64,000 bases of DNA from Malacoraja senta (lineage: Eukaryota): NCBI GenBank assembly GCA_038087875.1, contig CM075988.1, forward strand, positions 3,534,001-3,598,000, read 5' to 3'. The translations under genes were made by a program, and so were the position numbers. The notes under the pieces were generated by a model. The model was not told the DNA's origin and did no database searches. It worked only from the letters and a program-made list of their open reading frames with translations. Positions within the stretch are counted from its first letter, which is position 1. Each line of letters opens with the position of its first letter. This document shows, in pieces, positions 4,606 through 30,315 of this stretch.

Positions 4606-4685
4606 ATATTACATGCGATCTCTAATGTGTTCCTTCTACTGTAGTTGCTGTGGACTGCCCTCTTGAAGCTCATTCTGTTCTTGGT

Positions 4686-4874: not shown

Positions 4875-5065
4875 CTGTTCTTGGTGGTCAGTATAGTAGG
4901 GGCGAAACTTCCGGGTTGAACATGGAATGAACAGCTATGTGTGAGCGTGGCTCCCGATTTCTGCTCAAGTCTACTTGTTTATCTTTGTCATATTCTTGAG
5001 ATAACCCACTATTGAACACGATGAAGGACTCGAGGCAGTATTAAGCACCTGATACAATAAGCCAA

Positions 5066-5944
5066 ATGAGCCGTCGAGCTAAAACCGGGGGAAAAGGCAG
5101 TGAAGTCTCAAGCAAGAGAGCTGCAGCTTTGGCACCGCTGCCTGAAGCTGGGCTTGAACTACCAGAGGATCTGGAGAGGCTTCGTTCAGCACTCCTTGCC
5201 GATATGACACAAGCGGTTAACTCTGTCCTAAAAAGAGAACTTGAAGTGGCTTTGTCGCCGGTGAACACCAGTCTGGAACAATTTAAATCCTATTACGAGA
5301 CGCACGATGAACGCATTCGTGAGGTTGAAGGCGGCCTGAATGACCACAGTGACAGACTGGTGAGCGCTGAAACTGCCATAGCTACATTACAGAGTGAAAA
5401 CGCACTCCTGAGAGTGAAGCTAGATGACCTCGAGAACCAGTCGCGGAGATCCAACCTAAGGGTGATTGGGACTCCCGAAAAGTTGGAGGGTTCGGACCCT
5501 GTTAAATTTATGACTGAGTTTTTTGAAGAAGTGTTGGTGGCTGATTTCTTCCCAATACCTCTTATGCTTTCGCGTGCCCACCAAATTGGACCTACATGAA
5601 CCAACGTCCCGAATATCAAGCCATCTAAGCCACGAGTGTTCCTGGTTCTCTTTCATTACTTCCAGGATATACATCGTATCATCACCAAACGGAGGCAGGA
5701 GCTGTCCTTCCGAGGGCACCGGGTGTTTTTTCATGAGGATTTCAATGCGGAGCTGGGGAGAAAACGTGCAACTTCTAGGGAAATAAAATCCCTGCTCTAT
5801 GAGAAAGGGGTTCGGTTTGGCCTCCTGTATCCTGCCCAGCTCCAGGTCACTCATGAAGGTAAAAACCACTACTTCAATACACCAGAGGCTGCCAAAAGGT
5901 TTTACTACTCGCGCTGGGGAGGTGACGGCCGTGAAGAACAATGA
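5066..5944 (+). pseudogene. L1 ORF1 (coiled coil, RRM, CTD), disrupted near 5600
   Basis: LDDLENQSRRSNLRVIGTPE, RAHQIG, FFHEDF, FGLLYPAQLQVT motifs. Confidence 0.9.
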
Positions 5945-6112
5945 CCTTTTAGGATATCCACGCGGCATTGGCAAGGCCTCCTGCGGCGGTAAACTGTTAA
6001 TCTTTGTAAGATTTAATTTGTGGAAATGTAAATGTCTATAATTGCTCTCTGGGATAAAAATTTTACTTCATTCCTTCTCGTAACGTTTTGCTTGTCTGGG
6101 GTTATCTTTAGC

Positions 6113-6144
<32 letters not shown>

Positions 6145-6159
6145 ATATCTATATTTAAA

Positions 6160-6243
<84 letters not shown>

Positions 6244-6697
6244 TATTACACGGTTCGACACAACTCATAAAGTCTCATTGTATGCGGATGACCTGCTCCT
6301 GTACATCGCGAACCCAGTCAGTTTTCTCCCTGTGATTATGAATATTTTAGAACGGTTTGGTGCACATTCTGGTTATAAACTTAACTACCAAAAGAGTGAG
6401 CTAGTACCGATTAACTTACCGGCTAAGCAGCTCCCTCGCTCTTTAACCTCATTCAAAAGGGCAGAGGATGGGTTTCGCTATCTCGGCGTTTTTATCACAA
6501 TACCCTTATCTGATATGTTCCGCACAAACTTTTTGCCTCTGGTTGAGAAAGCCGAAAAAGATTTTGATCGCTGGTCAGTCTTACCTCTATCCCTCGTGGG
6601 CCGGATAAATCTGGTTAAGATGGTTGTCCTACCCAAATTCCTCTATCTTTTCCAGCATGTCCCCATACTTATCACCAAATCTTTTTTTGACAAATTA

Positions 6698-7263
6698 TTA
6701 TTATTATTTTTTTTTTTTTTTTTTTTTTTTTAATTTTTATTTATTAGAAGTACATTACATTACAACCACATACATTAATACTCGTCATTTATATCATCTT
6801 ACAATTAATGTACTCCCTTTATTTATTTTTTTACACTAGAGAAAGAAAAGATTGAAAGAGAGAAGAAAGTGAAGGAAAAAGTGCAAGTGTAGAAAAGTGT
6901 AGAAAATGTAACAACAAAAAAGGACGAAGACCCTATAAGAGCGAAATTAAAAACAAAAAGAAAAAGAGTTAAGAAATAGGCCCTAAGAAAAGAAAAGAGA
7001 AAGAGAAAAAAAAGAGAAACAAATGTTTTTTTTTTTTGAGCATCACGTAAATAGGACATACCAACTCTTCAACTATCATCCCCCCTTACCCGACCTCAAT
7101 TTTTTATTTTTTTTTAAAGTACTTTTTCACCCTATGTTTGTAATAATTCTATAAATGCAGACCACGTCAGGTGGAAGTGATCTGGTTTACCTGCTAGGAG
7201 GAGTCTTATCTCTTCAAGGTGTAATGTTTCAAACATATTTGAAATCCACATATTTATAGTTGG
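6698..7263 (-). mobile_element. Short 5'-truncated AT-rich L1 (ORF2 C-terminus, 3' UTR, poly(A))
   Basis: Minus strand encodes PTINMWISNMFETLHLEEIRLLLAGKPDHFHLTWSAFIELLQT*; poly(T) at the left; TSD ttttttgacaaatta at 6683-6697 and 7264-7278. Confidence 0.92.
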
Positions 7264-8491
7264 TTTTTTGACAAATTAGAAAGGACAATATCTAAATTCT
7301 TATGGGGTAGCAAACCGGTCAGAATCCGAAAGGCGATACTGCAGTCGCCTAAGAGTGATGGCGGTTTGGCCCTCCCTGATTTTAGGCGATACTACTGGGC
7401 AGCTAACTTGCAAAAACTCCTGTATTGGATGAATGATGATTGCGAGCACCCACCGATCTGGGTATATATGGAAAAGGCGAGTTCACATCTCCCATTGCGG
7501 TCTGTCCTATGCTCCCAACTCCCCCTTTCTATAACATCTGTGGGTGCAGGCCCAATTGTGTCCCTTTCGCTCAAGATATGGAGTCAATTTAGGAAAAACC
7601 TCGGTTTACAGGGTCCTTCCATCTTGACCCCACTGCTTAAAAATCACATTTTTAAACCTTCAAGTATAGACCACGCATTTAAAACCTGGCATAGTAATGG
7701 CATCAGTAGTATTAAAAACCTATATAAGGATGGTATCTTCTCATCTTTCACGGAGCTCTCGTCTAACTGCAACCTCCCAACCACCTTTTTCGGTTTTTCC
7801 AGATTAGGGATTTTGCGAAGAAGACATTTCCCTACTTCCCAAATCGCCCTCCTGAAACCCTGACTGATATCATCTTAGCTTTAGACCCCAATCGGAAGAA
7901 ATGCATCTCTATTTTGTATAACTTGCTAGGGATGGTTTTATTGAAACCTCATACCTCATTAAAAGCTGCGTGGGAGGGAGAGCTGAATACGCAATTAACA
8001 GACCAGCAATGGGACTCTGCCTTGGATTTGATCCACTCTTCTTCCATATGCGCTCGTCATGGCCTAATCCAATGCAAAGTCCTTTACAAAGTCCACTATA
8101 CAAATGCAAGATTATCTAGAATGTACCCAGCTGTTAATGACACCTGTAACAGATGTTGTCAATCTCCTGCCAACCATAGCCATATGTTTTGGTCTTGCCC
8201 TAAGCTAGCAGCCTTTTGGAGGAGTGCTTTTGAATTGATAAGCAGAGCTTACGACCAGACTATTCTTCCAAATCCAATGTCAGCCATTTTCGGTACCCCT
8301 CCCAATACCAACCTCTCTGTTGCGGTGAAACGGGTCCTAGCTTTTACAACCTTGTTAGCCCGGAGACTGATCTTGCTTAGTTGGAGGCTCACCTGTCCCC
8401 CGACACACGCCCGTTGGATTAAGGAGGTGCTTTACAATCTGAAACTTGAAAAACTTAGGTTCTCTCTCAAAGGCTCTACCAAGACATTCCT

Positions 8492-11400
8492 TTTTTTTAT
8501 TTTTTTTTTTATTTTTTTTTATTTTTTAGAAGTACGGTAGATTACAGTAATGTACAACACGTATATATTAATACATTTTTTGTACCGCTTCACTTTTTTA
8601 AACTTTAAGAAAGAAAAAGAAAGAAGTAAGAAAAGTGAAGAAAGTGCGCAAAGGTTGTGAAGTGCAAAAGAGTGTTGGGAAAAGAAAGCCCCTTAGAAAA
8701 GAAGTTAGAGAAGGAAGTAAAGTTAGAAAATAGACCCTAGAAAAAAAAAGAGAAAGAAAGAAGGAACAATCGCTCTATTATAACTCTTATACCATACTTC
8801 ATAGAGAAGGAACTACCAACCAAGTCTGTTTTTATTTTACCTCCCATTACCAGGTCCAGATACCTTTTATTTATTTATTTGTTTTTCTAAATTACTATTG
8901 CACCTCATGCTTGTAATAGGTCCAAAAACGTAGACCACGTCTTTTGAAATTGATCTACTTTGCCTACTAGGAGGAATCTCATCTCTTCCAGATGTAATGT
9001 TTCCAACATATTTGATGTCCACATTTTTATTGTTGGTGTGGGCGCATTTTTCCAGAATTTAAGTATAAGCTTTTTTCCCATTATTAGCCCATAATTGAGT
9101 AAATTCTTCTGATACACGTTTAATTCAGGAATACCTTCCGATATTCCAAAAATAATCCATTCTGGTTTTGGTACCAGTTTTATTTTGATTAATTTTGAAA
9201 AAATATCAAATATTTCAAACCAGAATTTTTGGATTTTTGTACAAAAAACAAAAGAATGTGCTATGGTAGCTTCTTGACATATACATTTATCACAGATTGG
9301 TGAGACGTTAGGAAAGATTTTATTTAGTTTGGTTTTTGAATAATATAATCTATGTAATGTTTTAAATTGGATAAGCGTATGTCGTACGTTGATCGAGCAT
9401 TTATGCACCTGTAATAAATGATTATCCCAACTCTCTTTTGAAATTTTTATACCTAGATCTTGTTCCCAATCTCTTCTAATTCCATCTGTTGTGGGTATTT
9501 CTATATTTAAGATGATATTATATAAGTATGATATTAAATTAACTGATTCCGCCTTTGTCTTCATTGCTTCATCTAGTAAGTCGGAAGGCATATTATAATA
9601 ATCTTTTGTGTGTGTTTTCAAATAGTCACAGATTTGTAGATATTTAAAATAATGATTATTTTTCAAATTATATTTCAGTTGTAGTTGTTGGAATGATAGT
9701 AATTTTTCTAATTCATACAGATCTTCGAGCGTTTTAATTCCCATTCTTTCCCATTGTATAAATGCTTTATCTATGATTGAAGGTTTAAACGATGGGTTAT
9801 TGACTATTGGTATTAAGAGAGATAGGTTTCTTAATTTTAGATTCTGTTTTATTTGCTTCCATGTTCTAATAGTGCTATATATAATTGGATTTTTATTATA
9901 ATTTTTATTATTCAAATTTATTGGAGAGAGAATAATCGCTCCTATATTATTCGGGGAGCAATCCCCTTTTTCCATTATAATCCAGTCCACCTGCTGGGCA
10001 GAATTGTCCAGCAGGTGAATCATATTTTTAATATTTACTGCCCAGTTATAATACATAAAGTTAGGGAGCGCTAGACCCCCCAACTCTTTTCGTTTGTTAA
10101 GGTGTGTTCTTTGTATTCTGTGGGATTTGTAATCCCATATAAAATTTGTAATGTCTGAGTCCAGTTTTTTGAAAAACTTTTTTGGGAGATATATAGGTAT
10201 TGATTGAAATAGGTAAAGGATTTGTGGTAAGAAAATCATTTTTATAGCATTTATCCTACCTATTAAGGACATCGGAAGTGTTTTCCAAAATTTAATCAGA
10301 TTATTTAATTTCTTAAGTAGGGGATTATAATTAGCTTTAAACATATCATGGTAATTTCTAGTAATCTCAATTCCTAAATATTTGAATTTTTCCATAGCTA
10401 TTTTAAAAGGGAATTTCCTGAGATGTGTTGAGTCTTTTGGTTTAATCGACATAATTTCACTTTTGTTCCAATTTATTCTATATCCTGAAAAGGATCCAAA
10501 GTCCTCAATTAAGTTTAATATATTTGGTATACTAATTTGTGGTTTTGTGATGTACAGTAGTACATCATCAGCATATAGGGATAGTTTGTTGTTTGAATAT
10601 TTTGTGTTATAACCGTGAATATTCGAGTGTGTTCTTATTTTTTCAGCAAGGGGTTCAATTACCAAAGCAAATAACAGCGGTGATAGTGAACATCCTTGTC
10701 TGTTGCCCCTAGATAATTCGAATTTTGAAGATAATATATTATTAGTTAGTATTCTAGCCGTAGGTTTGTTATATAGTAGTTTTATCCATGCAATAAAGTT
10801 TTCTCCCAATTGGAATTTTTGCAATACTTTGATCATATAGTCCCATTCTACTTGATCAAACGCTTTTTCTGCGTCCAGTGAGATGATAGCTAACTCTTGG
10901 TCATAAGATTTATGTGAATGCATTATGTTAAGCAAACGTCTCAAATTATTAAATGAGTGTCTCTTAGGTATAAATCCTGTTTGATCCTCATGTATTAGTC
11001 TACTAACATACTTGCTTAATCTATTGGCTAATGTTTTTGCTATTATTTTCTGATCCGTATTTAACAAAGCAATAGCTCTATATGATCCTGGTTCTTCTAT
11101 ATTTTTATCTTTTTTAAGTATTAATATGATCGTTGATTCCGCTAGTGTTTCAGGTAGGTTTTGCTCTTTATAAGCATATGTATACATTTTTTGTAATCGT
11201 GGAGTAACTATATCATAAAAAGATTTATAAAATTCATTACTGAATCCGTCTGGTCCTGGTGTTTTTCCATTTTTTAGTGTTTTTATTGTGTCTTCTATCT
11301 CCTTAGAAGTAATTTGTGCTCCCAGTTCCTCTTGTTCCCTGCGTTCTAATTGTGGTAGATTACAATTATCTAAAAATTCTGAGATTTTATTATTGTCTAT

Positions 11401-12660
11401 TGACGTTTTAGATGTGTATAGATTCTGGTAAAATTGAGCAAATCTTTTATTAATATCCTTGGGTAGTGTTAATACTTCCCCTCTATCTGATTTAATCTTT
11501 AATATTGCATTCTCTTTTTCCCGTTTTTTAAGTTGTCGTGCTAGAAGTTTGTGGGGTTTGTCCCCGAATTCGAAGTGTTCTTGTTTTGTGATTTGAAATA
11601 ATGTTATAACTTTCTCTGACAGTAATTTATTTAACTGAAATTTCAGTAGTAGTATTTTATTATGTTTATCCATAGTTGGGTCTTTAGCATTATCTATATC
11701 TAACTGTTTTATTTGATCTTCTAAGTGTCTTTGTTCATTCTTATTCTTTTTATTTTGATAAGCTTGAAATGAAATAATGACTCCTCTTATAAATGCTTTG
11801 AAGGATTCCCATAATAACGTGGGGGATATCTCTGGTGTATCATTTAACTCAAAAAATAGATCCATCTGTTTTTTTAGATAGATACTCCCTTGAGGGTCTT
11901 TTAAAATTTGTGAGTTAAACCTCCAGAACGGTTTATTCATAGACATTCCTTCTAGTTTTAGAACAAAAGTTAACGGAGAATGATCTGAGATCGCATTAAT
12001 ATGATATTTAGGATTCAGAGATTGCGAAATTAATTTTGTATCCACAAGAAAATAGTCTATCCGTGAATATGTTTTATGCACCATTGAATAAAACGAGTAA
12101 TCCCTTCCCGTCGGGTTTGCAATCCTCCATACATCTGTTATATTTGTGTTTTCCATATATGTGTGTAAGAGTTCACTGGTTTTAGATTTCGTCTGACCTT
12201 TTTGTTTTTGCATCGATTTATCTAAATAAGGATCTAAAACACAATTAAAATCTCCTCCGATTATAACATTTTGATAATTAGATTCTGCAATTATATTCAG
12301 AATTTTATTAAAAAATTGAGGGTTATCAAAGTTGGGCGCATATATGTTTACCAGCGTAATTGGCATATTATTGATCTCCCCTGCTACTATAAGATATCTC
12401 CCTTCCTTATCTACTATAGTGTTCTTTGATTTAAATGGAATTCCTTTACGAATAATAATTGCAGTACCTCTAGATTTGGAGGTAAATGAAGAGTGAAATG
12501 TTTGGCCTATCCAGTTCGCCCTCAGTCTTGTCTGATCTTGCTGTTTAAGATGTGTTTCCTGTAGAAACGCAATGTCCGTGTTGTATGATTTCAACTGAGC
12601 TAGTATCTTGCCCCTTTTAATAGGTTCATTAATCCCCCTTATATTCCAACTACATATTCC
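8492..12660 (-). mobile_element. Young AT-rich L1, truncated at the very start of ORF2, flanked by a 234-bp direct duplication
   Basis: Patterned poly(T) tail from 8492; uninterrupted ORF2; 8258-8491 equals 12661-12894. Confidence 0.95.
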
Positions 12661-12690
12661 GACTATTCTTCCAAATCCAATGTCAGCCAT
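8905..12690 (-). CDS. Intact L1 ORF2p (APE endonuclease, reverse transcriptase, C-terminal Cys-rich domain), 1261 aa from an ATG located in flanking host sequence
   Basis: SWNIRG, LQETH, GGDFN, SRIDY, SDH, PGPDGF, SLDAEKAFD, QGCSLSP, YADD and CDKC...HSFVFC all lie in one frame with no stops. Confidence 0.9.
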   Translation of the reverse strand: MADIGFGRIVGICSWNIRGINEPIKRGKILAQLKSYNTDIAFLQETHLKQQDQTRLRANWIGQTFHSSFTSKSRGTAIIIRKGIPFKSKNTIVDKEGRYLIVAGEINNMPITLVNIYAPNFDNPQFFNKILNIIAESNYQNVIIGGDFNCVLDPYLDKSMQKQKGQTKSKTSELLHTYMENTNITDVWRIANPTGRDYSFYSMVHKTYSRIDYFLVDTKLISQSLNPKYHINAISDHSPLTFVLKLEGMSMNKPFWRFNSQILKDPQGSIYLKKQMDLFFELNDTPEISPTLLWESFKAFIRGVIISFQAYQNKKNKNEQRHLEDQIKQLDIDNAKDPTMDKHNKILLLKFQLNKLLSEKVITLFQITKQEHFEFGDKPHKLLARQLKKREKENAILKIKSDRGEVLTLPKDINKRFAQFYQNLYTSKTSIDNNKISEFLDNCNLPQLERREQEELGAQITSKEIEDTIKTLKNGKTPGPDGFSNEFYKSFYDIVTPRLQKMYTYAYKEQNLPETLAESTIILILKKDKNIEEPGSYRAIALLNTDQKIIAKTLANRLSKYVSRLIHEDQTGFIPKRHSFNNLRRLLNIMHSHKSYDQELAIISLDAEKAFDQVEWDYMIKVLQKFQLGENFIAWIKLLYNKPTARILTNNILSSKFELSRGNRQGCSLSPLLFALVIEPLAEKIRTHSNIHGYNTKYSNNKLSLYADDVLLYITKPQISIPNILNLIEDFGSFSGYRINWNKSEIMSIKPKDSTHLRKFPFKIAMEKFKYLGIEITRNYHDMFKANYNPLLKKLNNLIKFWKTLPMSLIGRINAIKMIFLPQILYLFQSIPIYLPKKFFKKLDSDITNFIWDYKSHRIQRTHLNKRKELGGLALPNFMYYNWAVNIKNMIHLLDNSAQQVDWIIMEKGDCSPNNIGAIILSPINLNNKNYNKNPIIYSTIRTWKQIKQNLKLRNLSLLIPIVNNPSFKPSIIDKAFIQWERMGIKTLEDLYELEKLLSFQQLQLKYNLKNNHYFKYLQICDYLKTHTKDYYNMPSDLLDEAMKTKAESVNLISYLYNIILNIEIPTTDGIRRDWEQDLGIKISKESWDNHLLQVHKCSINVRHTLIQFKTLHRLYYSKTKLNKIFPNVSPICDKCICQEATIAHSFVFCTKIQKFWFEIFDIFSKLIKIKLVPKPEWIIFGISEGIPELNVYQKNLLNYGLIMGKKLILKFWKNAPTPTIKMWTSNMLETLHLEEMRFLLVGKVDQFQKTWSTFLDLLQA

Positions 12691-13062
12691 TTTCGGTACC
12701 CCTCCCAATACCAACCTCTCTGTTGCGGTGAAACGGGTCCTAGCTTTTACAACCTTGTTAGCCCGGAGACTGATCTTGCTTAGTTGGAGGCTCACCTGTC
12801 CCCCGACACACGCCCGTTGGATTAAGGAGGTGCTTTACAATCTGAAACTTGAAAAACTTAGGTTCTCTCTCAAAGGCTCTACCAAGACATTCCTAGATAC
12901 ATGGAACCCTTTCTTTGAACTGGTTAACTCTCTTACCTTGTCCCCGGACTCGGAAGAGGACTGAGTGTTCTCCATTATCGTTTTGTTCTACAGCAGCTGC
13001 TTTCCCCTTAATCCCCCCTCCCTACAATTGTTTATTTAGATGTGTATGTATATATATATATG

Positions 13063-13123
<61 letters not shown>

Positions 13124-13679
13124 TTTTTTAATTTTTTTTAATTTTTATTTTTTTATTTTTATATAGCACATTTTGTTTAGTCTATTCTACCATTTGTGTG
13201 TGGATGTGTACGTATGTGAGTGTTGTTTGTCCCCGTTTGGCTCCGACCTGACTTGGGTGGGTTGAAGGTGGGTAAGGGTAAGGGTTTTGAGGATTGCTTA
13301 AATACTGTTGTACAATTATGCCTTGATTATTACTGTCTTATTATTGTATGTATGTAAATTGCCGTGAAATTCAAATAAAAAGATCAAATGAAAAAAAAAT
13401 AAAAAAAATCCTTCTCCCCCCAACCCAAAAATGTCAAAATGTTTTAAAAAAACAGCTCTCACCCATAGAATGTTGGTGAAGGTTCCATCGTGTGATGTCA
13501 CAATGCCCAATGCTCACAGATGTCCAAATGGAATGGATCCATTTACATATGCCTTTGCAGCAGCCCCAGCCCCAGCCCCTCCCCCCCACCCCCGCAGCCT
13601 GTGGCGAAGCACGTCATCACGTGTGTGGGAATAGAGAAAGAGGATTGGGGGTGATAGGGAATGGGAAACAGATGGACTG

Positions 13680-14930
13680 TCCCTACGCCTCCCCCTTCCA
13701 GTCTCCCTCCCCACTATTTCCCCTCTCTCCCCCCACCCCTCTCCCCCTCCCTCCACACTCTTCCCCCTCCCTCCCTTACCCCATCTCCCTCCTCCCCTCA
13801 CTCCCCCCTCCCCCACACCTCTCTCCCCCCTCCCCATCCCTCTCTCCCCCTCCCCCATCACTCTCTCCTCCCCTCTCCACCTCCTTCTCCTCACCCTCTC
13901 CCTGTCCCCCCCATCCTCCTCCCACCCATCCCTCTCACCCCCACACCCCTACCCTCTCCCCCTCCCTTCCCCCTCCCCCACCCCCTTCCCTCTCTCCCCC
14001 AGCCCCCTCCCCCCACACCCTTCCCTCCCCCACCCCCTTCCCTCTCTCCCCCACCCCCTACCCCCTCCCCAATCTTCCCCCTCCATCCACACTCTTCCCC
14101 CTCTAACCCCTACCCCATCTCCATCCTCGCCTCCCTCCCCCCTCCCCCACACCTCTCTCCCCTCCCCTCTCTCCTCTCCTCCCCCATCCCTCTCTTGTCC
14201 CCCTCTCCATCTCCCTCTCCATCTCCCTCTCCTCACCCCTCTCCCTCTCCTCCCCCTCACCCCACCCCCATCCCTCCCTCCCCCACCCCCTTCCCTCTCT
14301 ACCCCACCCCTTCCCTATCTCTTCCCGCCCCCTTCCCCTACCCCTCTGTCCCTCTTCCACCACTCCCCTACTCCTCCCTCCCCACTCTTCCACTTCTCTC
14401 CCCCTTACCCCACCCCTCTCCCTCTCCCCCCCACCCCTCTACCTCTGCACTCTCCCCCCTCCCTCCCCTACCCCAACTACCTCCTCCCCTACCCTATCTA
14501 CCTCCTCCACTCCCTCCCCCATCCCTTCCCCCTCCCCCACACCTCTGTACCCCTCCCCCATCCCTCTCTCCCCCTCCCCATCACTCTCTCCTCACCCTCT
14601 CCATCTCCCTCTCCTCACCCTCTCCCTCTCCTCCCCCTCCTCCTCCCACCCCCATCCCTTTCTCCACCACCCCCCTTCCCTCTTACCCTTCCCTCCCCAC
14701 CCCCTTCCCTCTCTCTCCCACCCCCCTCCCCTACCCCCTTCCCTCCCACACCCCCTTCCCTCTCTCTCCCCACCCCCTTCCCCCTCCCCACTCTTCCTCC
14801 TCCATCCACATTCTTCCCCCTCTACCCCCTATCCCTATCTCTGCTCTCTCTCTCTTTGATTTTTATCTTTTTCTCTGCACTCTCTCTCTCTCTCTTCCAC
14901 TCTGTCTGTGCACACTCTCTCTGCCCCCCA
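13680..14930. repeat. Low-complexity polypyrimidine (C/T-rich) tract inside Helitron copy 1
   Basis: About 1.25 kb almost free of G on the plus strand. Confidence 0.95.
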
Positions 14931-15644
14931 CCTCTAGATGCACCTGAGAGGTGAGGGCTATTCGTCAGTGGATAGGGTGGAGATGGGATAAAAGAAGCCA
15001 ATTAATAAAATTGAGATAATATCAAGGGGTGTGATGAGTGTGTGTGTTTGTGGGTGCCAGATTCCCACCCTGCAACCGTGCTTTGGAGGAAGAGACCCAA
15101 TGTGGCTAGTGTGACGCCGCTGCACCCCCCAGCAAACGCGCGTTGGGGAAACAGACCCAACGGGTCTGCACTTGGTCTAGTCTATATTTAAAACTCTGTG
15201 TGTGTGTGTTTGTGTGTCTGCCTGTCTTGTGGCTGTCAGCCTTTGATTCCTTGCTACGCCAACACCACATGCAGAAACGCCGAGATTTTTTCTCCTTTTC
15301 ATTCCAAGTAGCCACTCCTGATTAAATTTCATAGTGTTTATGTACACATTTTAAAATAAAATCCTTCTCTCCCCCCCCCCCAACCCCAAAATTTCAAAAT
15401 GTTTAAAAAAACAACTCTCACCCATAGAATGTTGGTGAAGGTTCCATCGTGTGATGTCACAATGCCCAATGCTCACAGATGTCCAAATGTAATGGATCCA
15501 TTTACATATGCCTTTGCAGCAGCCCCAGCCCCAGCCCCTCCCCCCCACCCCCGCAGCCTGTGTCGAAGTGTGTCATCACGTGTGTGGGAATAGAGAAAGA
15601 GGATTGGGGGTGATAGGGAATGGGGAACAGATGGACTGTCACTA

Positions 15645-17715
15645 CCCCTCCCCCTTCCACTCTCCCTCCCCACTATTTCCCCTCTCTCCCCCCACCTCTC
15701 TCCCCCTCCCTCCTCACACATCCCCCTCCCTCCCCTACCCCATCCCCCTCCTCCCCTCCCTCCCCCCAGCCCCCCTCCCCCACACATCTCTCTCCCCATC
15801 CCTCTCTCCTCCAGTCCCCATCCCTCTCTCCTCCCCCTCTCCAACTCCCTCTCCTCACTCCTCTCCTCCCCTCCTCCCCTCCTCCCTTCCTCCCCTCCTC
15901 CGACCACCCCATCCCTCTCTCCCCACCCCTTCTCCCTCCACACTCTTCCCCCTCCCTCCCCTGCCCCATCTCCCTAATCCCCTCCCTCCCCTATCCCTCA
16001 CCCCCTTCCCCACACCTCTCTCCCCCTCCCCATCCCTCTCTCTCTCCCTCCCCAATCCATCTCTCTTCCCCTCCCTTCCCCCTCTCTCCCCTCTCTCCCC
16101 CCACCCCTTCCCCTACCCCGCTGTCACTCTTCCAACACTACCCCTACCCCTCTCCCCCTCCCTCTCTCCCACTTCCACCACACCCCCTACACCTCTCCCC
16201 CTCCCCATTCTTCCACTTATCTCCCCACCCCCATCCCTCCCCATCTCACTCCCGCACCCCTCTATCCCCCTCACTTCCCTCTCCCTCCACACTCTTCCCC
16301 TCTCTCTCCCCCTACCCCTCTCCCCCTCCATCCACACTCTGCCCCCATCTCCCTCCCCCACCCTCTCTCTCCCCCTCCCTTCCCTCTCCCTCCACACTCT
16401 TGCCCCACCCTCCCCTACCCCCACCCTCACTCCTCTCTCCCCCACCCCCCATCCGTCTCTCCTCGCCTCCCCACCCCTCTCTCCTCCCCCTCTCCATCTC
16501 CCTCTCACTCTCCTACCCTCCTCCTCCCAACCCATCCCTCTCTCTCCCACCCCACCACCCACATCCCTCTCTCCCCACCCCCTTCTCCCTCCCCACTCTT
16601 CCCCCTCCCTCCACACTCTTCCCCCTCTCTCCCCTACCCCATCTCCCTCCTCCCCTCCCTCCCCCTCCCCTTCCCCTCCCCCACACCTCTCTCTCCCCTC
16701 CCCACTCCCCTCTCCTCCCCTGCCCCATCCCTCTCTCCCCCTCCCTCTCATCCTCCTCCTCCTCCTCCTCCCCCCACCCCATTCCTCTCTCCCCCACCCC
16801 CCTTACCTCTCCACCCCATCCCCTTCCCTCTCTCCCCCTGCTCCCCCCTACCCCTCTGTCCCTCTTCCACCACTCCCCCTACCACAATCCCCCTACCACT
16901 CTCCCCATCCCTCCCCACTCTTCCACCTCTCCTCCCTTCCCCACCCTCTCACTCCCTCCCCCACCCTCTCTCTCCCCCTCCCTCCCTCCCTCCCTCCCTC
17001 TCTCCCCCCACCCCCTTCCCCTACCCTCTCTCCCTCTTCCACCCCTCCCCTACCCCCTCACCCTCCCTCTCTCCCACTTCCACTACTCTCCTACACCTCT
17101 CCCCCTCCCTCCCCATTCTTCCACTTATCTCCCCCATCCCTCCCCATCCCCCACCCCTCTCTCCCCCACTCCCTCCCTTCCCTCTCTCTCCACTCTCCCC
17201 CTCCCTACACACTCTTCCCACTCTCTCCTCACCCTCTCCCTCCTCCCCTCCCACCCCCTCTTCACCCCTATCTTCCCCCCACCCCCTTCCCCTCTCTCTT
17301 GCACCACTCCCCGCTACCCCTCTCCCCCTCACTCCCCACTCTTCCCCTCTTGCTCCCCCACCTCTCTTCCTCCCCCCTCCCTCTCTCTCTTCCCCTAATC
17401 CTCTCTCCCCTTCCCCTCATCCCCTCTCTCCACCTCCAACATCCCCTCCCCCCTCTGCCACCCCCCTACCCCTCTCCCCCCTTCCTGCCCTCCCCGCTCT
17501 CCTCCCACTCCCAACTCTCCTCCCCCTCCCTCCCCCACCCTGCTCTCCTCTCCCTCCCCAATCTCTCCCCTTTCCTCCTCCCCCCTCTCCCCTCCCTCCC
17601 CCCTCTCCCCTCCCTCCCCCTCTCCCCTCCCTCCCCTCTTCTGTCCCCACCCCCTCTCCCTCCCCCCCTCCCCTCTTCACTCCCCACCTCGTCTCCCTAT
17701 CCCACCTCCCCCTGC
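15645..17715. repeat. Low-complexity polypyrimidine (C/T-rich) tract inside Helitron copy 2
   Basis: About 2.1 kb almost free of G on the plus strand. Confidence 0.95.
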
Positions 17716-17817
17716 CTGTGTGTTTGGGGGGTGGTTAGTGTGAGTGCGATGCTGCAGCTCCCCTCCCCCCCCGCAAACACGCGTTGGGGAAACAGACCGC
17801 CAACAGGCTCTCTGTCT

Positions 17818-17998
17818 TTAAGAAGGAACTGCAGATGCTGGAAAAACGAAGGTACACAAACAAAAACTGGAGAAACTCAGCAGCATCTATGGATCAAAGG
17901 AAATAGGCAACGTTTCGGGCCAAAGCGTTGCCTATTTCCTTCGCTCCATAGATGCTGCTGCACCCGCTGAGATTCTCCAGCTTTTTTTTTGTACCAGT
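17818..17998. mobile_element. Palindromic Penelope-pLTR mini-element with 10-bp TSD
   Basis: Inverted arms matching 121-196; ctctctgtct at 17808-17817 and 17999-18008. Confidence 0.78.
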
Positions 17999-18829
17999 CT
18001 CTCTGTCTCTCCCCTCTCTCTCTCTCTCTCTCTGCCCTTCACTCTTCACAGCCCGCAGCTCAACTCATGCACGCCCGCTGCAACCCCCCTCACCTCTCTC
18101 CCCATCCTCTCCTTCCTCTCTCCCCCCCTCCTCTCTCCCCCTCCTCTCTCCCCCTCCTCTCCCCCTACTCTCCCCCCTTCCTCTCCCCCCTTCCTCTCCA
18201 CCCTCCTCATCCCCCTCCTCACAATTTTTTTTCTCACATTAAATTTTCTCTCTCTGCCCCCCCCCCCCACCTCTAGACGCACTTGAGAGGTGAGGGCTAT
18301 TCATCAGTGGATAGGGTGGAGATGGGATAAAAGAAGCCAATTAATAAAATTAAGATAATATCAAGGGGTGTGATGAGTTTGTGTGTTTGTCGGTGCCAGA
18401 TTCCCACCCCGCAACCGTGCTTTGGAGGAACAGACCCAACGGGTCTGTACTTGGTCTAGTGTATCTTAAAAGTAGAACAAATGACTGTACAACTTTGAAA
18501 GAAGGGAGCCACCCTCAATTGGATCTAAAATTTTAGTTAGGGAACACTTTGGAAGTTTTTTGTTTTGTAATGCCTGCGATCATCCTCAGTTGGGGAAGAA
18601 GATCTAGGTTCTTGGGGATTAAATGTTTTTTTTTGTTATTGTAAGGGGATGAGGGAAAGGTTTTTGGGTAATGGCAGCTTATTCTTTGATTGTTACAAAT
18701 GCACTCGCCTTTTTTTGTCCTCTTTTTTTTTCCATTGTGGGCTCTCACATGCAGCCTTCGCGTTGTTTTGGATGGCAGACCCTGTATGTATTTTTTAAAT
18801 ATATATTTTGAAATATGTCTAATTGATAT

Positions 18830-21628
18830 TGATGGAGGCTATCCTGTGAGGTTTATATCTTGGAATGCAAAGGGTTTAATGGTCCTGTTAAAAGAGCTAA
18901 CGTTTTTTCTCATCTAAAACAACTAAGAACAGATATACTACTTTTACAAGAAACCCACTTAAGACTGCAAGATCATAATAGACTGTGTAAAACGTGGGTT
19001 AGTCAGACCTTTCACTCCAGATTTAATAGCAGGTCCAGGGGTGTGGCAATATTAATCAACAAAAGAATACAGTTTACACCGTCCGACATAGTCAGTGACC
19101 CTAATTGCTGGTTTATTATAGTTTCCGGGTGTCTTTTTAAAAAAACTGTCATTTTAGTGAATGTTTATGCCCCTAATTGGGATGATGTTCACTTTGCAAA
19201 TAAGGTTTTGTCATTAATACCCGATCTGAACACGCACCAGCTAATTTTTTCGGGAGACCTGAATTGTGCTATTGATCCACTACTTGATAGGTCTAATTCT
19301 AAGGGGACACCTTCTGGTATGGCAAAGACCTTCTCACTGTTTATGCAACAAAATGGTTATATGGACCTCTGGAGATTCCTGAACCCAACGGCTAGACAAT
19401 TCTCTTTTTTTTCTCATGTTCACCATTCTTTTTCCAGAATAGATATTTTTTTTATAGACAGCCCCTTCATTCCTGTGGTTAAGAAATTGAATATACTGCT
19501 ATAGTAATATCAGATCACTCGCCTGTGATACTGGACCTAGGCTTTCCTTTAAACATTAGAGAATGACCTCTCTGGAAACTGAACCCCCTTTTGCCATGAT
19601 CATAATGAATGGCGGTGCTGGCTCGAAGGGCCGAATGGCCTCCTCCTGCACCTAATTTCTATGTTTCTATGTTTTGCTTTCCAATGAAAAATGTTGCAGT
19701 TTTGTAACGGCTAACATAGACACATTCCTCGAGATGAATAAAACCGAGTCCGTATCCTGCTCTTTATTTTGGGAAACTTTAAAAGCCTACTTGAGAGGTC
19801 AAATCATATCTTATACTTCATACGCCAATAAAGAACGCAAGAAGGAAATGCAAACCCTGTTACAATCCATCTTGGCTCTGGATAGGCAATATTCTGAAGC
19901 ACCCACTGCCCAATTATATAAAAGCCTTGCTGATTTACAAATAAAATTCAATCTTCAATCTACTAAGCAAACAGAACAACTAATTCTCAGGACTCGTGGT
20001 CTTTATTATGGTGATAACGGTATATACGGTGATAAGGCGAGCCGGCTTATGGCTCACCAACTGAAGCGTTAATCTGCATCACGACTTATTCCTCAGATAA
20101 GAGACATACACCAGGACATAACAAGCAATCCAAAAGAAATAAACAATACTTTCACAGCCTTTTATTCTTCTCTTTACACCTCAGAATTCCCCTTGGATAC
20201 AATGAATATGGAAAATTTCTTAGACGATTTGGAAATACCCACTCTGGAATTAGAAGGCAGAAGATCTAGACCAGGCCCTTGGGCAGGAAGAGATTAATAA
20301 TGCCATTATGGTGATGCAGAGTGGTAAAACCCCGGGCCCTGACGGCTACCCATTAGAATTTTATAAGAAATTTAAGGATAAGCTCACACCAGTTCTTTTA
20401 GAAATGCTTCAAGAATCTTCGGAAAATGGTTCATTACCCCCCTCCCTTTCACAGGCATCTATTTCACTTCTTAAAAAAGACAAGGATCCGACTCAATGTG
20501 GATCATACCGCCCCATCTCACTTTTGAATGTAGGTGTAAAAATTTTGGCTAAGGCGCTGGCTTGCCGTTTAGAATGCCAACTTCCCAAAATAATCTCAGA
20601 GGATCAAACAGGTTTCCTTAAAAATCGTCATTCCTTTTCTAATATCCACCGACTGGCCAGTGTGGTCTATTCGCCCAGTGCTTCTCCGCGCCCAGAGGTT
20701 GTTATCTCTTTGGACGCAAAGAAGGCATTCGATCGAGTGGAGTGGCCATATTTGTTCAGAGTCGTGGGGAAATTTGGATTCGGCAAAACAATTGTAGCCT
20801 GGGTTAAGCTATTATATCATTCACCTTTAGCATGTATACAGACAAATTATTTGCGATCTGATTATTTTCCATTAACACGCGGCACTCATCAAGGCTGCCC
20901 TTTGTCTCCGCTTCTTTTTGCGATTGCAATTGAGCCTCTCTCTATTGCACTTAAGTCAACCACATTATTCCAGGGCATTAGGAGAGGAAACATGGAACAT
21001 CGTGTGTCTCTATATGCCGAAGACCTCCTTCTTTATGCGAATGACCCTACAGCCAGTGGCCCTGCAATTGTGTCCTTCTTAGATCAGTTTGGAACTTTCT
21101 CTGGCTATAAACTAAACCACCAAAAAAGTGAATGCTTTCCCATCAACCTAGCCCTACAGATCCGACAGGAATCCCTGCCCTTTCCCATATCTCAAGAAGG
21201 TTTTGTATATCTAGGAATACACATTACCCGCTCTTTCACATCCCTGTTTGAAGCTAACTATACGCCTCAAGATAGCCAAATAAAGGCTGACTTTGAGAGA
21301 TGGCGTAGTCTACCTCTCACTATGGCTGGGAGAGTGCAGTCGGTGAAGATGACTGTACTTCCCAGATTTCTTTACTTGTTCCAATGTTTGCCGGTCTTCC
21401 TATCCAAGTCATTTTTTAACTCAGTTAACCAATCTATAACCTCGTTTATATGGGGTAACAAGGTTCCATGGGTCAATAAGTACACTCTCCAAAGAGGTCA
21501 TGAAGTAGGTGGACTGGGCCGTCCTAGCTTTATTCATTATTACTGGGCATCCAATATCCAAAAGATATTATTCTGGCTCCACCGACCAGATACAGACTGG
21601 TGTCTGCTTGAGTCACAGTCTTCTTATT
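18830..21628 (+). pseudogene. Outer L1-B ORF2, EN and RT part (frameshifts and stops)
   Basis: FISWNAKG, LQETH, NVYAPN, GDLN, PGPDGY, SLDAKKAFDRVEW, QGCPLSP, YAED. Confidence 0.92.
19595..19671 (+). mobile_element. CR1 3'-end micro-insertion
   Basis: GGCTCGAAGGGCCGAATGGCCT hairpin plus (TTCTATGT)n; TSD ttttgc at 19589-19594 and 19672-19677. Confidence 0.85.
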
Positions 21629-22138
21629 TTACTTCGGAGTCACGTGAGTGACTACGTGAAGAACCCCGTCAGGGCGCATGCGCGTCATTACGTCGGACGC
21701 ATTGGTGCGAACGGCAGCGGGAGCACGGACCTCCTGCTGCAACGTGAGTAAATACAGCTCCACCAAAGTCGGGGAGACTTTGGAGGAGTTAGAAAAAAGT
21801 AAAGAAATTGTTTCTGTGTGTTTTTCCCCCACATACAGGAACAAGGAAAAGGTGCAGGCTGCTGCCGACAAGGAGAGAGAGAGCTGCGGGACGCAGTCTC
21901 TGAAAGGCAGCCTGTCACCTCGGGGGAGTCGCAAGCCGGTAGCGGTGCGGCGACAGACTTCAGAAAGTGCCCAGCTGGGTGCACAGCCAACGCCAGTCGG
22001 GCGGTCGGCATAAGTTAAGTCTGTCAGGGCTATAGACTCCGCAGAGTCGGGCCACGAGAGTCCCGTCGGGGACAGGATACCGTTCCCCAGTGGTTATCCA
22101 AAAGGAGCAGCTCATACAGGGGCTGCTCCACAGAGACG

Positions 22139-22385
22139 CTCCAGGAGGAGTAGTGCAGGTGGGAAGCCATAGGGAAGGCTCCGCTGGCAGTGCCTAGGAG
22201 AGGTCTGCCTCATAAAGCCACAACTCCAGGAGGAGTAGTGCAGGCGGGACGCCTTAGGGAAGGCTCCGCTGGCAGTGCCTAGGAGAGGTCTGCTTCAGAA
22301 AGCCATACTCCAGGAGGAGTTGTGCAGGCGGGAGGCCGTGGGGACGGCTCCGCTGGCAGTGCCCAGTAGAGGCCTGCTTGAAAGC
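22139..22385 (+). repeat. Three ~84-bp tandem repeats in the DIRS ORF1 region
   Basis: Units begin ctccaggaggagt at 22139, 22224 and 22308. Confidence 0.9.
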
Positions 22386-24929
22386 ACCCTCTTTGCAAGA
22401 GGTGAGTGCAGAAGGGCAGATACGCTCTGACCCTGAGTCCGACGACTTCCAAAGGGAGGGCAGGCAGCTGCCAGAGCTGACACCGTGTGCAGCACGGTTT
22501 GCCATGTCGTCGGATGCTGGTGAGCCTCTGGGTGAGGAACTTGCCACCAGCATAAATTACCAAGTCTCACATCAGCTACAGGAGCTGACAATGGATGAGA
22601 CAGTAACGAAGTATGAAACCCCAATCAACTGTGGACTGTTAAAAGTTCCTGTTGGGAACAGGAAGAATTGGGGTAAGATGGGCATACTAATGAAAGCCCA
22701 GGAGCATGTGAAGCTCCAGCATATTTTTAAAGTTGCTGGCATCTGGTATAACGAGCTTTGCCAGGATGGTGGATGGAGAGGGCATGACAAATTACAACAA
22801 AAGGCGCTATTGTGGAGTGCCCACTTTGAGATCAATTGTCTCCGCAAGATGCGATTAGACCAACCATCAATGCTAAATATGCTTCACTCTGCCAGCCTGG
22901 CACAGTGCAACTGGCACAGCTGTTTGGCGAGGATTTCGCACAGCAGGTGAAGGAGCTGGAGGAGGAAGCTAAGACGGCAGCCACATATTCACCAAAGCGG
23001 AAGTATCCCTATAAGGGAGCAGACTGGTCCGGGCAAGGGACGAGTCCAGCTAGGATGCAGCGCAGTTGGCGTTCGGCTGTAGCACCGCCACGGAGGTGAG
23101 ATATCCAGCTCAAGGCCGGGCAAGAATGCCAGGTGGTAAGGAGGTAAGAGGGTCTGGTTCTCATGTAGACAGATCTAATGTGATACAATTAAATGTTTAC
23201 CTCAGATATGTTTATACTGAAGGTTATTCAAGAGCATCGAATAAAGCTTAAATGCAAATTCTGATTTACCCATGCAACATGTTCCAAAAAAGGAGTTTGA
23301 CTTCAGTATCACTGAACAATTGGAAGTTCAGCTGGAACTTGCAAGCTTATGTAATAAAGGTGTAATTGCTAAGGCAGTTTACCAAAGCCATCAGTTTGTG
23401 TCCAATATCTTTCCCAGACCAAAAAAGGATGGGGGGATGCAGAATTATACAGACCTGAATAGGCTTAACCCTTTTGTACGGTATAGACATGTTAAGATGG
23501 AAACGTTTGTGAAGGAGATCTTAAAGATGCGGATTCAGTGTCTGTTCATTTGCAGGATAGAAGATTTAAAATTCAGCTGGATGGGAATTATGCCAATACA
23601 ATCCACTGCCTAATGGTTTGTCTTCAGCTCCAAGAGGGATTACAAAGTTGTTAAAACCTATTCTAGGCATGATGAGAAGTCAAGGTCATGTGCTCATGGC
23701 TTAGCTAGATAATATCTTGATTGTAGGACAATCAAAGGAAACAGCTGAAGTATCAGTGGCAGTTGGTAAAAACTAATTTTTAATTGGGCTTTATAAGCTA
23801 TTCTGAAGAATCTAAATTTATACCTGGGACACAAATTGATTAGTTGGGTTCACAATGGACTTAATCAACATCATTGTGACCTTGCCCAGGCAAAAAAGGG
23901 TAGAGCTAATTAAGAGCTATATCAAGTTAATTGCTAACACACAGCCTTCAATTAGGCAGGTGACAAGACTGCTGTGGTAATGGCTGGCAGCATTTCCAGC
24001 AGTTCAATATGGCCACTTTATTATCTACAATTACAAAGGTCAAAGGAACAAGCATTGAGGATACATTGGGGTCATTATAATAGACCTATGCTTCTATCAA
24101 TAGAGGCTGTTGCTGATGTACAATGGTGGATTCAGCATGTGTCCACTAGTAGTTCCAAAGTGTTATTGGACCAAGTTTCCATGATTTGCAGACAGATGTC
24201 AGAGCACTTGGGTAGGGTGCTACTGATACAAGATCCAGCGGTGGAGACAGATGAACATTGCTTCTGCAAACATGGGGAATTAACCAAGAGTATTTTATGG
24301 ACTCAAGGCTTATGGCACTAACTAAACTAGTTGGCATGTGCAGTGCAAAATAGACAACACTGCAGCAGTTGCTGATATGAATCACATGGGTGGAATCAAA
24401 TCGTTATCATGTGACAGGTTGGCAAATACAATTGGACCTGGAGTAGGGATAGAGAGATTTGGATTGGAGCTATCTATCTGCCAGGGAAACTTAATGTAGT
24501 ACCAGATGGCAGCTCACGAAAATTCCATCATAACACAGAGTGGATGTGGAACCAGGATGTGTTCAAGAACATAGTACTTCTATATGGAAGGCCAAAATAT
24601 GTTTCATAGGCACCAGATCCAGGGGCAGTGGCAATTGATGCTTTTTCACTAAATTGGGATGATATGTTTGTGTACATTTTCCCACCATTCTGCCTCATAG
24701 GTCGGTGTTTGAGAAAATCAAGCAGGATGCCGCTTCAGGGGTTTTGGTGATACCAAATTGCCTGATTCAACCATGGTTCCCTTTGAGGTTACAGATAGCG
24801 ATCCAACCTCTTTTTGCTGATTCCAAACAGTAGGAATTTGCTGGAGCATCCAGTAACGCATTAAGTTCATCCGTTATGTGACGGTATGGATCTGTTAGTT
24901 TGCAGGTTTCAAGAATGCCTTACATTGGT

Positions 24930-25893
24930 CGAGGCCTTTCTAGGCCAACGGTGTATATACTCGCTGCAGTCTGGAGAAAGAGTACTCAAAAACAGTATAT
25001 GACATGAAAAAAAAAAAAAAAAAAGGAACAATATTGTGTTCAAAAGAATATTCAATATGATACTGTAGTTATTGAAAATGTGTTAGAGTTTATCTACACT
25101 TTATTATGATGAAGGTCTTAGCTATACTGCTATCAATACAGCTAGAAGTGCTTTGTCCGCATATCTTGTAATAGGTACACGGACACAAAGTATAGGTTCT
25201 CACCCTCTCATATCTAGGTTGATGAAAGGAATCTAATTCCAAACCGCCTAAGCCTAGGTATATGGTAATCTGCGAGTTAAGCGTTGTTCGTAACATACTT
25301 CGTCATTGGGTCCCTGTCACGGCTATAACTTTGTTAAAATTAACCATGAAATTGGCTATGCTAATGGCATTGGTGTCAGTACAGAGAGTGCAGACTTTCC
25401 AAAAAACTTCAGTTCGAGAGAATGGAAGTGAATACAGAGAATGTTCTGTTTTATATTTCTGACCTGCTCAAACAAAGCAGGCCAGGTGTGACAGGTTTTA
25501 AGATTGTGTTCTCAGCATATCCTACAGCTCCATGTTTATGTGTAAGGACACATTTGTTACATTACATTGAAGCCACAAGGGCTTTAAGACAAGAAGAAAC
25601 AGGATTATTTGTCAGTTACAAAAAGCCAACATAAAAGAGTGGCAGTTCAGACTATCTCAAGGTGGTTAAAGCAAGAGTTGGTTCAGGCAGGAATTAACAT
25701 TTATGTGTTTACATCTCATTCCACTAGCGCAGTAGCAACATCCGCGGCCAGGGCGATGGACGTTCCCATCGACCATATATTAAAAGTTGCAGGTTGGAAA
25801 AATGAACTTGTGTTTCAGCAATACTACCATCGGCCGATTGCCGATGGAGGGCTGTTTGCTAACTCATTATTGAGTGCTGTTGCTATTGTTTAA
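24930..25893 (+). pseudogene. DIRS tyrosine recombinase ORF (disrupted)
   Basis: GLSYTAINTARSALS, HPLISRLMKG, LKQSRPG, QTISRWLK, HSTS, GWKN..FQQYY spread over several frames. Confidence 0.88.
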
Positions 25894-26102
25894 AGTCTGT
25901 TTTCAATACTGTTTCATTCTGTTTCGTTTGTTGCCCTACATTAAGAGGATTTATTGGTTGTTTTATGACCAAAAATAAAACTGTTTTGTTTTTGCATGAT
26001 ATGCAATGTCATGTTTACAGCATTATTGATGATACTCAGTCAATCGATGCAGTGAGAAGCCGGGATTTTGATCTGCGGCATAAAAATCACAGAGCTTTAA
26101 AA

Positions 26103-26214
26103 TCTTCACGTAGTCACTCACGTGACTCCGAAGTAAAATAGTAAGATTAAACGAGAACTTACCAGTTTGAAGTTTGATCTTTATTTTATGAGGAGTTACG
26201 TTGGTGATTACGTG
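26103..26214. other. DIRS internal complementary region (ICR)
   Basis: Left part is the reverse complement of the left terminus (21627 onward); right part is the reverse complement of the right terminus (26366-26441). Confidence 0.92.
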
Positions 26215-26443
26215 CCCGCCACGCCCAACCCTCTCTCATAGAAAAAAGGTCATAATGGTAGTTCTCATGTTGATCATCTTAATATGTTACTTCAATTATG
26301 GTGTTGTCTGTGATTTCATACCGCTGCTTTGAAGATTGACGCGCATGCGCCCTGACGGGGTTCTTCACGTAATCACCAACGTAACTCCTCATAAAATAAA
26401 GATCAAACTTCAAACTGGTAAGTTCTCGTTTAATCTTACTATT

Positions 26444-26980
26444 CCTCGTCTCTCCCAGCTTTAGTATATTCCTCCCTGCCATTGAAACCCTCTTGACTTA
26501 CATCCAACCCTGTCGTACTATCCACCATCAACATTTGTAATCAATTTTGTTGTCATTATAAGTTTACATCAGCTTCAGTTCTGGGTCCCATTCACAGTAA
26601 CCATTTATTCCCCCCCTCCACACTTGATTCAACCTTTAGACAGTGGCGTTTGAATGGTCTTATGTATGTTAAGGATTTATACACTAACAACATATTTGAT
26701 AGTTTTGTTAACCTACACAGAAAATATGGCCTCCCACATAATCATTTCTTTAAATATCTTCAGGTCCGTCACTTTGCCATGAAAAAAATTCTCTCTTTTC
26801 CTGATTTCCCGCCTGTCACAGTGTTGGATAAACTCACTTTTACCTTTGCAAATAAAGGACAGTAGTATATTCTCAACTGATGTCTTTAGGAGATCAAAAC
26901 CTGAACAAAGTTAAAACTAGGTGGGAGGACGACCTTGGTATAGATCTGTCTGAGGAATGCTGGACAGAAGCACTAGTCAG
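26444..26980 (+). pseudogene. Outer L1-B ORF2 continuation
   Basis: Rejoins in frame across the DIRS (ESQSSY|SSSLPALVYS); KYGLPHNHFFKYLQVRHF. Confidence 0.88.
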
Positions 26981-29801: not shown

Positions 29802-30315
29802 ATCATCATGTGCTAGATTGGGGCTAATACAGTTCAAAGTTTTACACAGGGTTCATTTAAGCAAAGCCAGGCTTGCTGACATATATCCGGGGACAGACGC
29901 TGGCTGTGACAGGTGCTCCTTCTCGCCAGCCAATCTAGTTCATGCATTCTGGTCTAGTCCCAAACTTGGTAACTACTGGGCAGTGGTTTTCAAAACCATC
30001 AGTGAAGTCCTTGGGATGACAGTGAGACCTTGCCTGCTTGTAGCTGTATTTGGTGTAGCAGATAAAACCTTGGGTTTAAATACAACCCAGTCTGATATCA
30101 TTACATTGACATCACTTTTGGCCCGTAGGAGAATCTTGCTGATCTGGAAATCTGCCACTCCTCCATCTGCTGCTGCTTGGCTGGAAGACGTGATTTTCTT
30201 TTAAGGCTAGAAAAGATTAGATTCACATTGAGGGGGCTGTGAAAATGTTTTATTTGAAATGGGAACCTTTTTTTAATCATACTTTGAGGGTCCAAAGGAA
30301 CCACCTATTGACTGA
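29802..30315 (+). pseudogene. Outer L1-B ORF2 C-terminus
   Basis: SSCARLGLIQFKVLHR, CDRC...HAFWS, LLARRRILLIWK. Confidence 0.9.

Follow-up and report, generated by a model that had tools for sequence, protein, structure and literature searches.

Can a single L1 insertion in the germline duplicate a target segment of 234 bp? The question is raised by a window of 64,000 nucleotides from Malacoraja senta (GenBank assembly GCA_038087875.1, contig CM075988.1, positions 3,534,001 to 3,598,000; window coordinates are used throughout), in which an antisense L1 element, truncated at its 5' end, lies between two direct copies of a 234-bp segment of another L1. A target-site duplication (TSD) of 234 bp lies outside the ~7-20 bp of canonical L1 integration through target-primed reverse transcription (TPRT). 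The structure, well constrained by the nest of elements around it, is probably a natural, genuine long-TSD L1 insertion, a rare outcome already known mainly from cultured cells. The insert and its borders, where ORF is open reading frame and RT reverse transcriptase, are as follows.

8258..8491, plus strand: copy 1 of the duplicated 234 bp, which codes for a C-terminal part of the host L1's ORF2, on the insert's poly(A) side
8492..8527, minus strand: poly(A) tail of the inserted L1, 36 nt long and interrupted three times, directly after copy 1
8528..8904, minus strand: 3' untranslated region (UTR) of the inserted L1, about 375 nt
8905..12660, minus strand: ORF2 of the inserted L1, open over 1,251 codons but shorn of its native start codon; the motifs of APE endonuclease, RT and CCHC are all present
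12657..12660, minus strand: 5' junction, four bases out of register with the family, beside an imperfect microhomology
12661..12894, plus strand: copy 2 of the duplicated 234 bp, on the insert's 5' side, running into the end of the host ORF2 (stop at 12964)

The two copies were compared by exact extension and by blastn. Positions 8258-8491 and 12661-12894 were identical at 234 of 234 positions at an offset of 4,403 (blastn, 100%), and the bases just outside the two copies differed; the first-pass annotation had matched them by eye, and the alignment bore this out. In a 20-mer scan (words present in 2-6 copies), the pair was the longest exact direct repeat of the window, with a runner-up of 75 bp. 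Because the final T of copy 1 can also be assigned to the T-rich tail, the TSD length is given as 233-234 bp. The insert between the copies measures 4,169 bp and consists of an antisense, 5'-truncated L1 with its poly(A) tail. The direct repeat adjoins both element ends, with four junction bases intervening on the 5' side. The earlier statement that the copies directly abut the element holds on the poly(A) side, where the tail begins at 8492, but not on the 5' side, where 12657-12660 are junction bases rather than plain L1.

The insert is classed as an L1-type long interspersed element (LINE) by its ORF2 domains, its end-to-end similarity to ORF2p and the poly(A) that follows its 3' UTR. The A-rich ORF2 of 3,756 nt contained no frame errors, and its protein matched Pfam PF03372 (APE endonuclease, N-terminal) and PF00078 (RT). 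All ten of the catalytic and zinc-knuckle motifs that were searched were present, including the C-terminal CCHC. Against LINE-1 ORF2p in the PDB, the match extended over residues 3-1245 (E 2e-185), and against R2 proteins it was confined to the RT (E 6e-22). A second, restriction-like endonuclease was not found in the insert, for which Pfam showed only the APE and RT domains. The named relatives were generic teleost RT proteins, 37-45% identical over residues 1-330. The SINE-like repeats scattered over the window may be akin to those known from cartilaginous fishes.

On the poly(A) side, the target step TTCCT/AG, which is intact at 12890-12896, is a pyrimidine/purine step that fits YYYY/AR. 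Eighteen YYYY/AR steps occur in about 1.75 kb of the host plus strand. An endonuclease consensus was also looked for where the second strand broke and was absent there. The 5' junction was compared with contigs of four of the 24 listed runs (X19, X20, X21 and X2) over the region 12350-13030 (681 of the 5,767 bases searched); 16 of the 24 runs were flagged as having a small share and were not used, and summed contig depth was not taken as copy number. In all four runs, the listed family contigs diverged from the window at 12651-12656; as they leave it there, 12657-12660 is read as junction sequence and not as plain L1. Past 12656, the family contigs continue with ATGTGATTCC or GTGTGATTCC, and the window continues with TTCC and then copy 2. 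The 5' junction thus appears as four extra bases or as a loss of six bases. Extra bases at this end have been reported in 14.6% of 5'-truncated human L1s (PMC2912911) and in about 40% of insertions of a zebrafish LINE (PMC2666801). The next nine bases of the window agreed with the family's next nine at six positions for the X20 variant and at five for the variant of X19, X21 and X2 (binomial chance 1-10%), which is no more than suggestive of a microhomology like that of annealing-type joins. Among the contigs listed (65 loose ends and 1,776 pieces lie outside the listing), none crosses 12656-12661 as the window does, a presence-only comparison that is evidence in neither direction. A search of metagenome contigs for related loci gave 44 pattern matches, none of which was confirmed.

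The duplicated segment is single-copy in the uninterrupted host family. The duplicated peptide was matched by 85 of 120 relatives, and in none of the 85 did it occur twice. In X20, a contig of 399 nt runs from the left flank (of its 144 letters there, the 30 shown equal 8228-8257) through a single copy of the segment with 0 differences into 21 nt of right flank, and is taken to show the uninterrupted state of the family, at family level and not at locus level. The first-pass annotation had called the insertion very recent. Its youth is borne out by the copy differences (0/234, which bound divergence to less than about 1.3%), by the intact ORF2 and by a distance of 3/307 bases from the X20 family contig; these figures set a bound and give no date.

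Near-identical members are numerous in both the host and the insert family (in three of the four runs, 551-684 contigs aligned per run, and one contig is identical over 255 nt). As the identity of the copies does not prove that they come from one place, the flanks were examined for signs of a single locus. The elements that enclose the insertion are listed below.

6241..13408, plus strand: host L1, 5'-truncated and starting in the RT, with its tail at about 13391-13408; a TSD was not found, and some 120-143 bp of the target appear to have been deleted
6148..15180, plus strand: Helitron-like unit 1, which contains the host L1; its start may extend left into a (TCTA)n tract near 6113
15181..18459, plus strand: Helitron-like unit 2, head to tail with unit 1; it provides the host L1's empty site (TT/AAAA step at 15352/15353)
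4900..30561, plus strand: outer L1, older and full-length, which encloses the whole nest; its poly(A) ends at 30561
5066-5944, plus strand: ORF1-like frame of the outer L1, left of the dimer
18869-21633, 26452-26975 and 29803-30291, plus strand: ORF2 pieces of the outer L1, colinear and decayed, right of the dimer
4890..4899, plus strand: left TSD of the outer L1, AGTATAGTAG
30562..30571, plus strand: right TSD of the outer L1, AGTATAGTAG, directly after the poly(A)

Helitron-like elements begin with 5' TC, end in 3' CTAG with a hairpin about 10 nt upstream, make no TSD and stand in head-to-tail tandem. Both units have such ends, with a 7-bp stem in each. Unit 2 matched the left flank of the host L1 exactly over 29 bp from 6148 and the right flank at 93% from 13401. 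The TSD of the outer L1 was perfect over 10 bp (10-12 bp), and the 10-mer occurs on the plus strand only at 4890 and 30562 (chance about 1e-4). The flanks thus rebuild one Helitron-like unit, a colinear ORF1/ORF2 order and the outer TSD, which argues strongly against a join of two dispersed loci. By the colinear nest and the matching outer TSD, the left and right flanks of the insertion are assigned to one locus.

Several points weigh against a single long-TSD insertion. In vivo L1 TSDs are nearly all below 25-30 bp, and the large-TSD candidates that were checked in one capture data set were chimeras in 10 of 10 cases (PMC4805530). The first nick is not at canonical TTTT/AA, a TTCC/AA step stands 12 bp inside the segment, where the nick of a second insertion would fall, and the microhomology is weak (with the chance given above) and varies with the family variant. 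The host family is near-identical here, so that the identity of the copies alone does not prove one origin. The single copy at an empty site is known for the family, and a locus-specific empty allele was not seen; the 21 right-hand letters of the X20 contig fall below the 31-letter bridging threshold, and this contig is not locus-specific. No contig spanned both junctions, and all 24 runs listed are short-contig sets, none of which held more than 0.83 of the words. Since no read was seen across both junctions, a recombinant of two insertions and a local assembly error remain candidates. On the other side, all of the features tested (the nick step, the annealing-type 5' junction, the single-copy family and the one-locus flanks) fit a single insertion, and they support the proposal of the first-pass annotation that one insertion was followed by distant second-strand cleavage or by repair-mediated completion. 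One L1 TPRT event, completed from a second-strand break 234 bp away, is given a probability of roughly three in four.

A pseudo-TSD would arise if two independent antisense insertions of one L1 subfamily, about 220 bp apart on two alleles, had been joined within the L1 body by crossover or by a haplotype switch in the assembly. Such an origin is unlikely. The locus is rich in insertions: 26 kb hold four L1s, and two of these lie antisense in a stretch of about 1.2 kb of the host; two insertions would be compatible with the nested flanks, and a recombination-made pseudo-TSD has been proposed for long HERV-K TSDs (PMC5488345). The TTCC/AA step noted above would suit it too, but 14% of host positions have a YYYY/AR step 7-20 bp downstream, and 27% have the looser YYYY/RR, so that its presence says little. 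Two rare events and an exchange between them are required. The neighbouring insertion belongs to a different subfamily. With guessed inputs, and as an illustration only, the odds for one event ranged from 0.3:1 to 333:1 and were in favour of it in five of six settings, before any penalty for the exchange. A local assembly or read artefact, in which a short-TSD insertion was assembled with its 5' flank re-entered about 220 bp early through merged filled and empty haplotypes or a chimeric read, is held to be very unlikely. The lack of a read across both junctions leaves room for it, and large apparent TSDs are a known signature of chimeras in capture data (PMC4805530). The window, however, has no N and passes through kilobases of low-complexity DNA, the long A-rich ORF2 is free of frame errors, and a butt join should follow the family to the last base, whereas this junction departs from it four bases early, as is typical for L1 5' joins.

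It is highly improbable that a 234-bp tandem duplication came first and the L1 inserted bluntly at its junction, or that the flank was copied by repair afterwards. Such a tandem, too, would have a pyrimidine/purine step at its junction, but the family has the segment once, the insertion would have had to strike one exact base and leave no TSD of its own, and the identity of the copies leaves little time between both events. A misjoin or ectopic recombination of two host L1 copies that lie dispersed, are near-identical and each carry an insertion of their own is made conceivable by the many near-identical members of both families; it is largely refuted by flanks that rebuild one Helitron-like unit and one outer L1 with its matching TSD (chance about 1e-4), and it is the least credible of these origins.

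For the favoured single TPRT event, the structure is given by the window, and the order of events that we infer from it is as follows. ORF2p would have nicked the host plus strand at the TTCCT/AG step, and the nicked 3' end would have primed cDNA synthesis on the poly(A) tail; copying ran for about 4.17 kb and halted a few codons inside ORF2. The opposite strand would then have been broken 234 bp away instead of about 15 bp, at a place where no endonuclease consensus stands. The favoured source of this second break would be a host-made nick or a replication-made end, met while the long cDNA intermediate persisted. The resulting 234-nt 3' overhang may have paired loosely with the end of the cDNA and served as primer for the second strand, giving the four extra bases or the six-base slip at the junction, and filling of both 234-nt gaps would have produced the two identical copies. 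A persistent cDNA flap that reaches a distant, unrelated nick has been proposed for long TSDs (PMC5223499), and break-induced replication for larger duplications (bioRxiv 10.1101/2024.12.14.628481). A distant nick and repair-mediated completion are inseparable by sequence, and we lean to the route of persistent flap and distant nick over break-induced replication.

That L1 TSDs are usually short, and very long ones rare and mainly known from cultured cells, as the first-pass annotation had stated, agrees with published surveys and cell assays. Canonical genomic L1 TSDs peak at 13-16 bp in human, cow, opossum and zebrafish (PMC4245944, PMC2912911). Canonical insertions share the element type and the tail with the present one, and both the neighbouring insertion, at 15 bp, and the outer L1, at 10-12 bp, obey their rule, but the 234-bp TSD is about 15 times longer. 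The survey of PMC2912911 covered TSDs of 5-30 bp only and states that longer ones need study; at least one genome survey thus has a blind spot for long TSDs. In HeLa cells, TSDs of more than 100 bp were reported for up to 10% of L1 inserts, and in cells deficient in nucleotide excision repair for 57-91% (PMC5223499); for the zebrafish LINE in wild-type DT40 cells, one TSD of 1,228 bp was reported among 25 inserts (PMC2666801). The closest likeness is to the long-TSD, 5'-truncated L1s of cultured cells (PMC5223499, PMC2912911, PMC4245944), with which the Malacoraja senta copy has in common an L1-type ORF2, poly(A), truncation, a repeat of more than 100 bp at both ends and an annealing-type 5' junction. 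Unlike these, it is endogenous, stands in an assembled genome, is nested in another L1, comes from a family distant from human L1 and carries no engineered reporter.

Long duplicated targets beside LINEs in natural genomes are also given by Dualen-4b of Chlamydomonas (median TSD 900 bp) and R9 of rotifers (126 bp) (PMC9977147). Dualens have two endonucleases, whereas only the APE domain was found in the insert, and the long TSD is the family norm there and an apparent one-off here. HERV-K (HML-2) sites with TSDs of 250 bp and 111 bp (PMC5488345) resemble the present case as natural germline insertions with a TSD of similar length and with the same caveats of pseudo-TSD and reversion; HERV-K is an integrase-based long terminal repeat element, and its empty alleles are confirmed there by polymerase chain reaction, while none is confirmed here. 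The L1-associated tandem duplications of 1-10 kb that are regarded as large TSDs (bioRxiv 10.1101/2024.12.14.628481) are likewise tied to the TPRT site, and break-induced replication would fit here too; unlike the present duplication, they come from somatic or experimental clones and are larger. A literature search, mostly without subscription papers and supplements, found no endogenous L1 TSD of more than 100 bp described in a non-mammalian vertebrate, and no long-TSD case appears in the accessible parts of PMC12458276, PMC8934628, PMC10249811 and bioRxiv 10.1101/522623.

Second-strand cutting in L1 insertion is still debated, and TSDs of more than 100 bp are usually ascribed to cultured cells or chimeric reads. 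An endogenous case with a known target and internal evidence of one locus suggests that the long-TSD pathway also runs in the germline. Four L1 events in the nest have a readable target: two are ordinary (10-12 and 15 bp), one made the 234-bp duplication and one an apparent deletion of 120-143 bp. It is doubtful that germline L1 insertions in this lineage often end in large target alterations instead of the 13-16 bp norm, as the sample of four events is tiny and was picked for one outlier. If this held genome-wide, a wild vertebrate germline would behave like repair-deficient cultured cells. The maker of the second-strand break could then be sought in a natural setting, and L1 would regularly generate duplications the size of exons, overlooked by capped TSD searches. 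One case with no read across both junctions alters little; its use is to encourage a count of TSDs, free of any length cap, in vertebrate genomes that are rich in repeats and sequenced with long reads.

The inserted element is probably inert, having neither promoter nor ORF1, and it could be excised cleanly by recombination between the 234-bp copies. Its truncation (window 12651-12660) comes only a few codons from where ORF2 naturally starts; a near-complete ORF2 was thus copied without ORF1. A spliced RNA as the cause of this truncation was rejected by eye, as the upstream family sequence is purine-rich on the sense strand and has no acceptor tract. Copy 2 supplies an in-frame ATG (12688-12690) ten codons ahead of the truncated ORF2 (MADIGFGRIVGICSWN; 12661-12690, minus strand), which gives a frame of 1,261 codons with a leader of 13 residues; the median leader was 14 in 99 of 120 relatives. 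This ATG is probably there by chance, and no promoter is known. A two-base difference at 12414-12415 of the insert is absent from nearly all covering family contigs in most runs and is taken from these contigs as private or as proper to a rare lineage, a marker by which the source element could be traced.

The frame that the insertion interrupts is ORF2 of the host L1 on the plus strand, whose protein is 27-46% identical to that of the insert. The first-pass annotation had stated that removal of the insert and one copy restores a host ORF. Both copies do begin in the same frame, which continues to the stop at 12964, but the ORF is an L1 ORF2 and not a cellular gene, and it has one frame change (near 7773-7791), with no stops in the aligned pieces. 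For the host L1 itself, no match longer than 8 bp was found between 4300-6300 and 13330-13520, and an apparent deletion of target sequence accounts for its lack of a TSD. A stretch of about 120-143 bp, present in unit 2 (15181-15370), is missing from unit 1 exactly at the host L1 (6148-6240 and 13401 onward); it adjoins a canonical TT/AAAA step and, unit 2 apart, does not occur in the window. The host L1 insertion probably made a long target-site deletion; alternatively, unit 1 lost the stretch earlier.

A second antisense fragment also interrupts the host L1.

6698..7263, minus strand: second antisense L1 fragment, of a different subfamily, with a TSD of 15 bp

Its TSD is exact (6683-6697 equal to 7264-7278), as the first-pass annotation had it, but the fragment is no sister of the large insert: identity of about 80% over the ORF2 end and about 67% over the 3' UTR places it in a different subfamily. 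The two antisense inserts (7272-7284 and 12888-12900) occupy different host positions and have only the T/AGA step in common (n=2); a LINE that homes into one target sequence of another element, in the manner of Tx1L, would be expected to insert there repeatedly. A strand bias of nick sites as the reason for two antisense inserts was not found, with YYYY/AR counts of 18 and 19.

The ORF1-like frame of the outer L1 gave a weak PDB hit (E 0.0065) and fell in an Atlas cluster with Transposase_22 on 29% of members; a Pfam search with it gave no L1 hit. The region 4890-30571 represents an old full-length L1 that has grown to about 25.7 kb through at least seven nested insertions and is still bounded by its perfect 10-bp TSD. 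The Helitron-like dimer (6148-18459) sits in the spacer of this L1 and has long C-rich internal tracts. The outer ORF2 is interrupted by an insert at 26976-29802 with a distant RT at 27980-28894, which seems to end in a short AT-rich repeat and for which no TSD longer than 5 bp was found in the zones searched. It is also interrupted at 21626-26450, where no TSD longer than 6 bp was found in the zones searched, by one of two copies of an element that have an exact 38-nt start in common. The other copy begins at 62173 and appears to contain another L1 (63086 onward), about 80% identical to the large insert.

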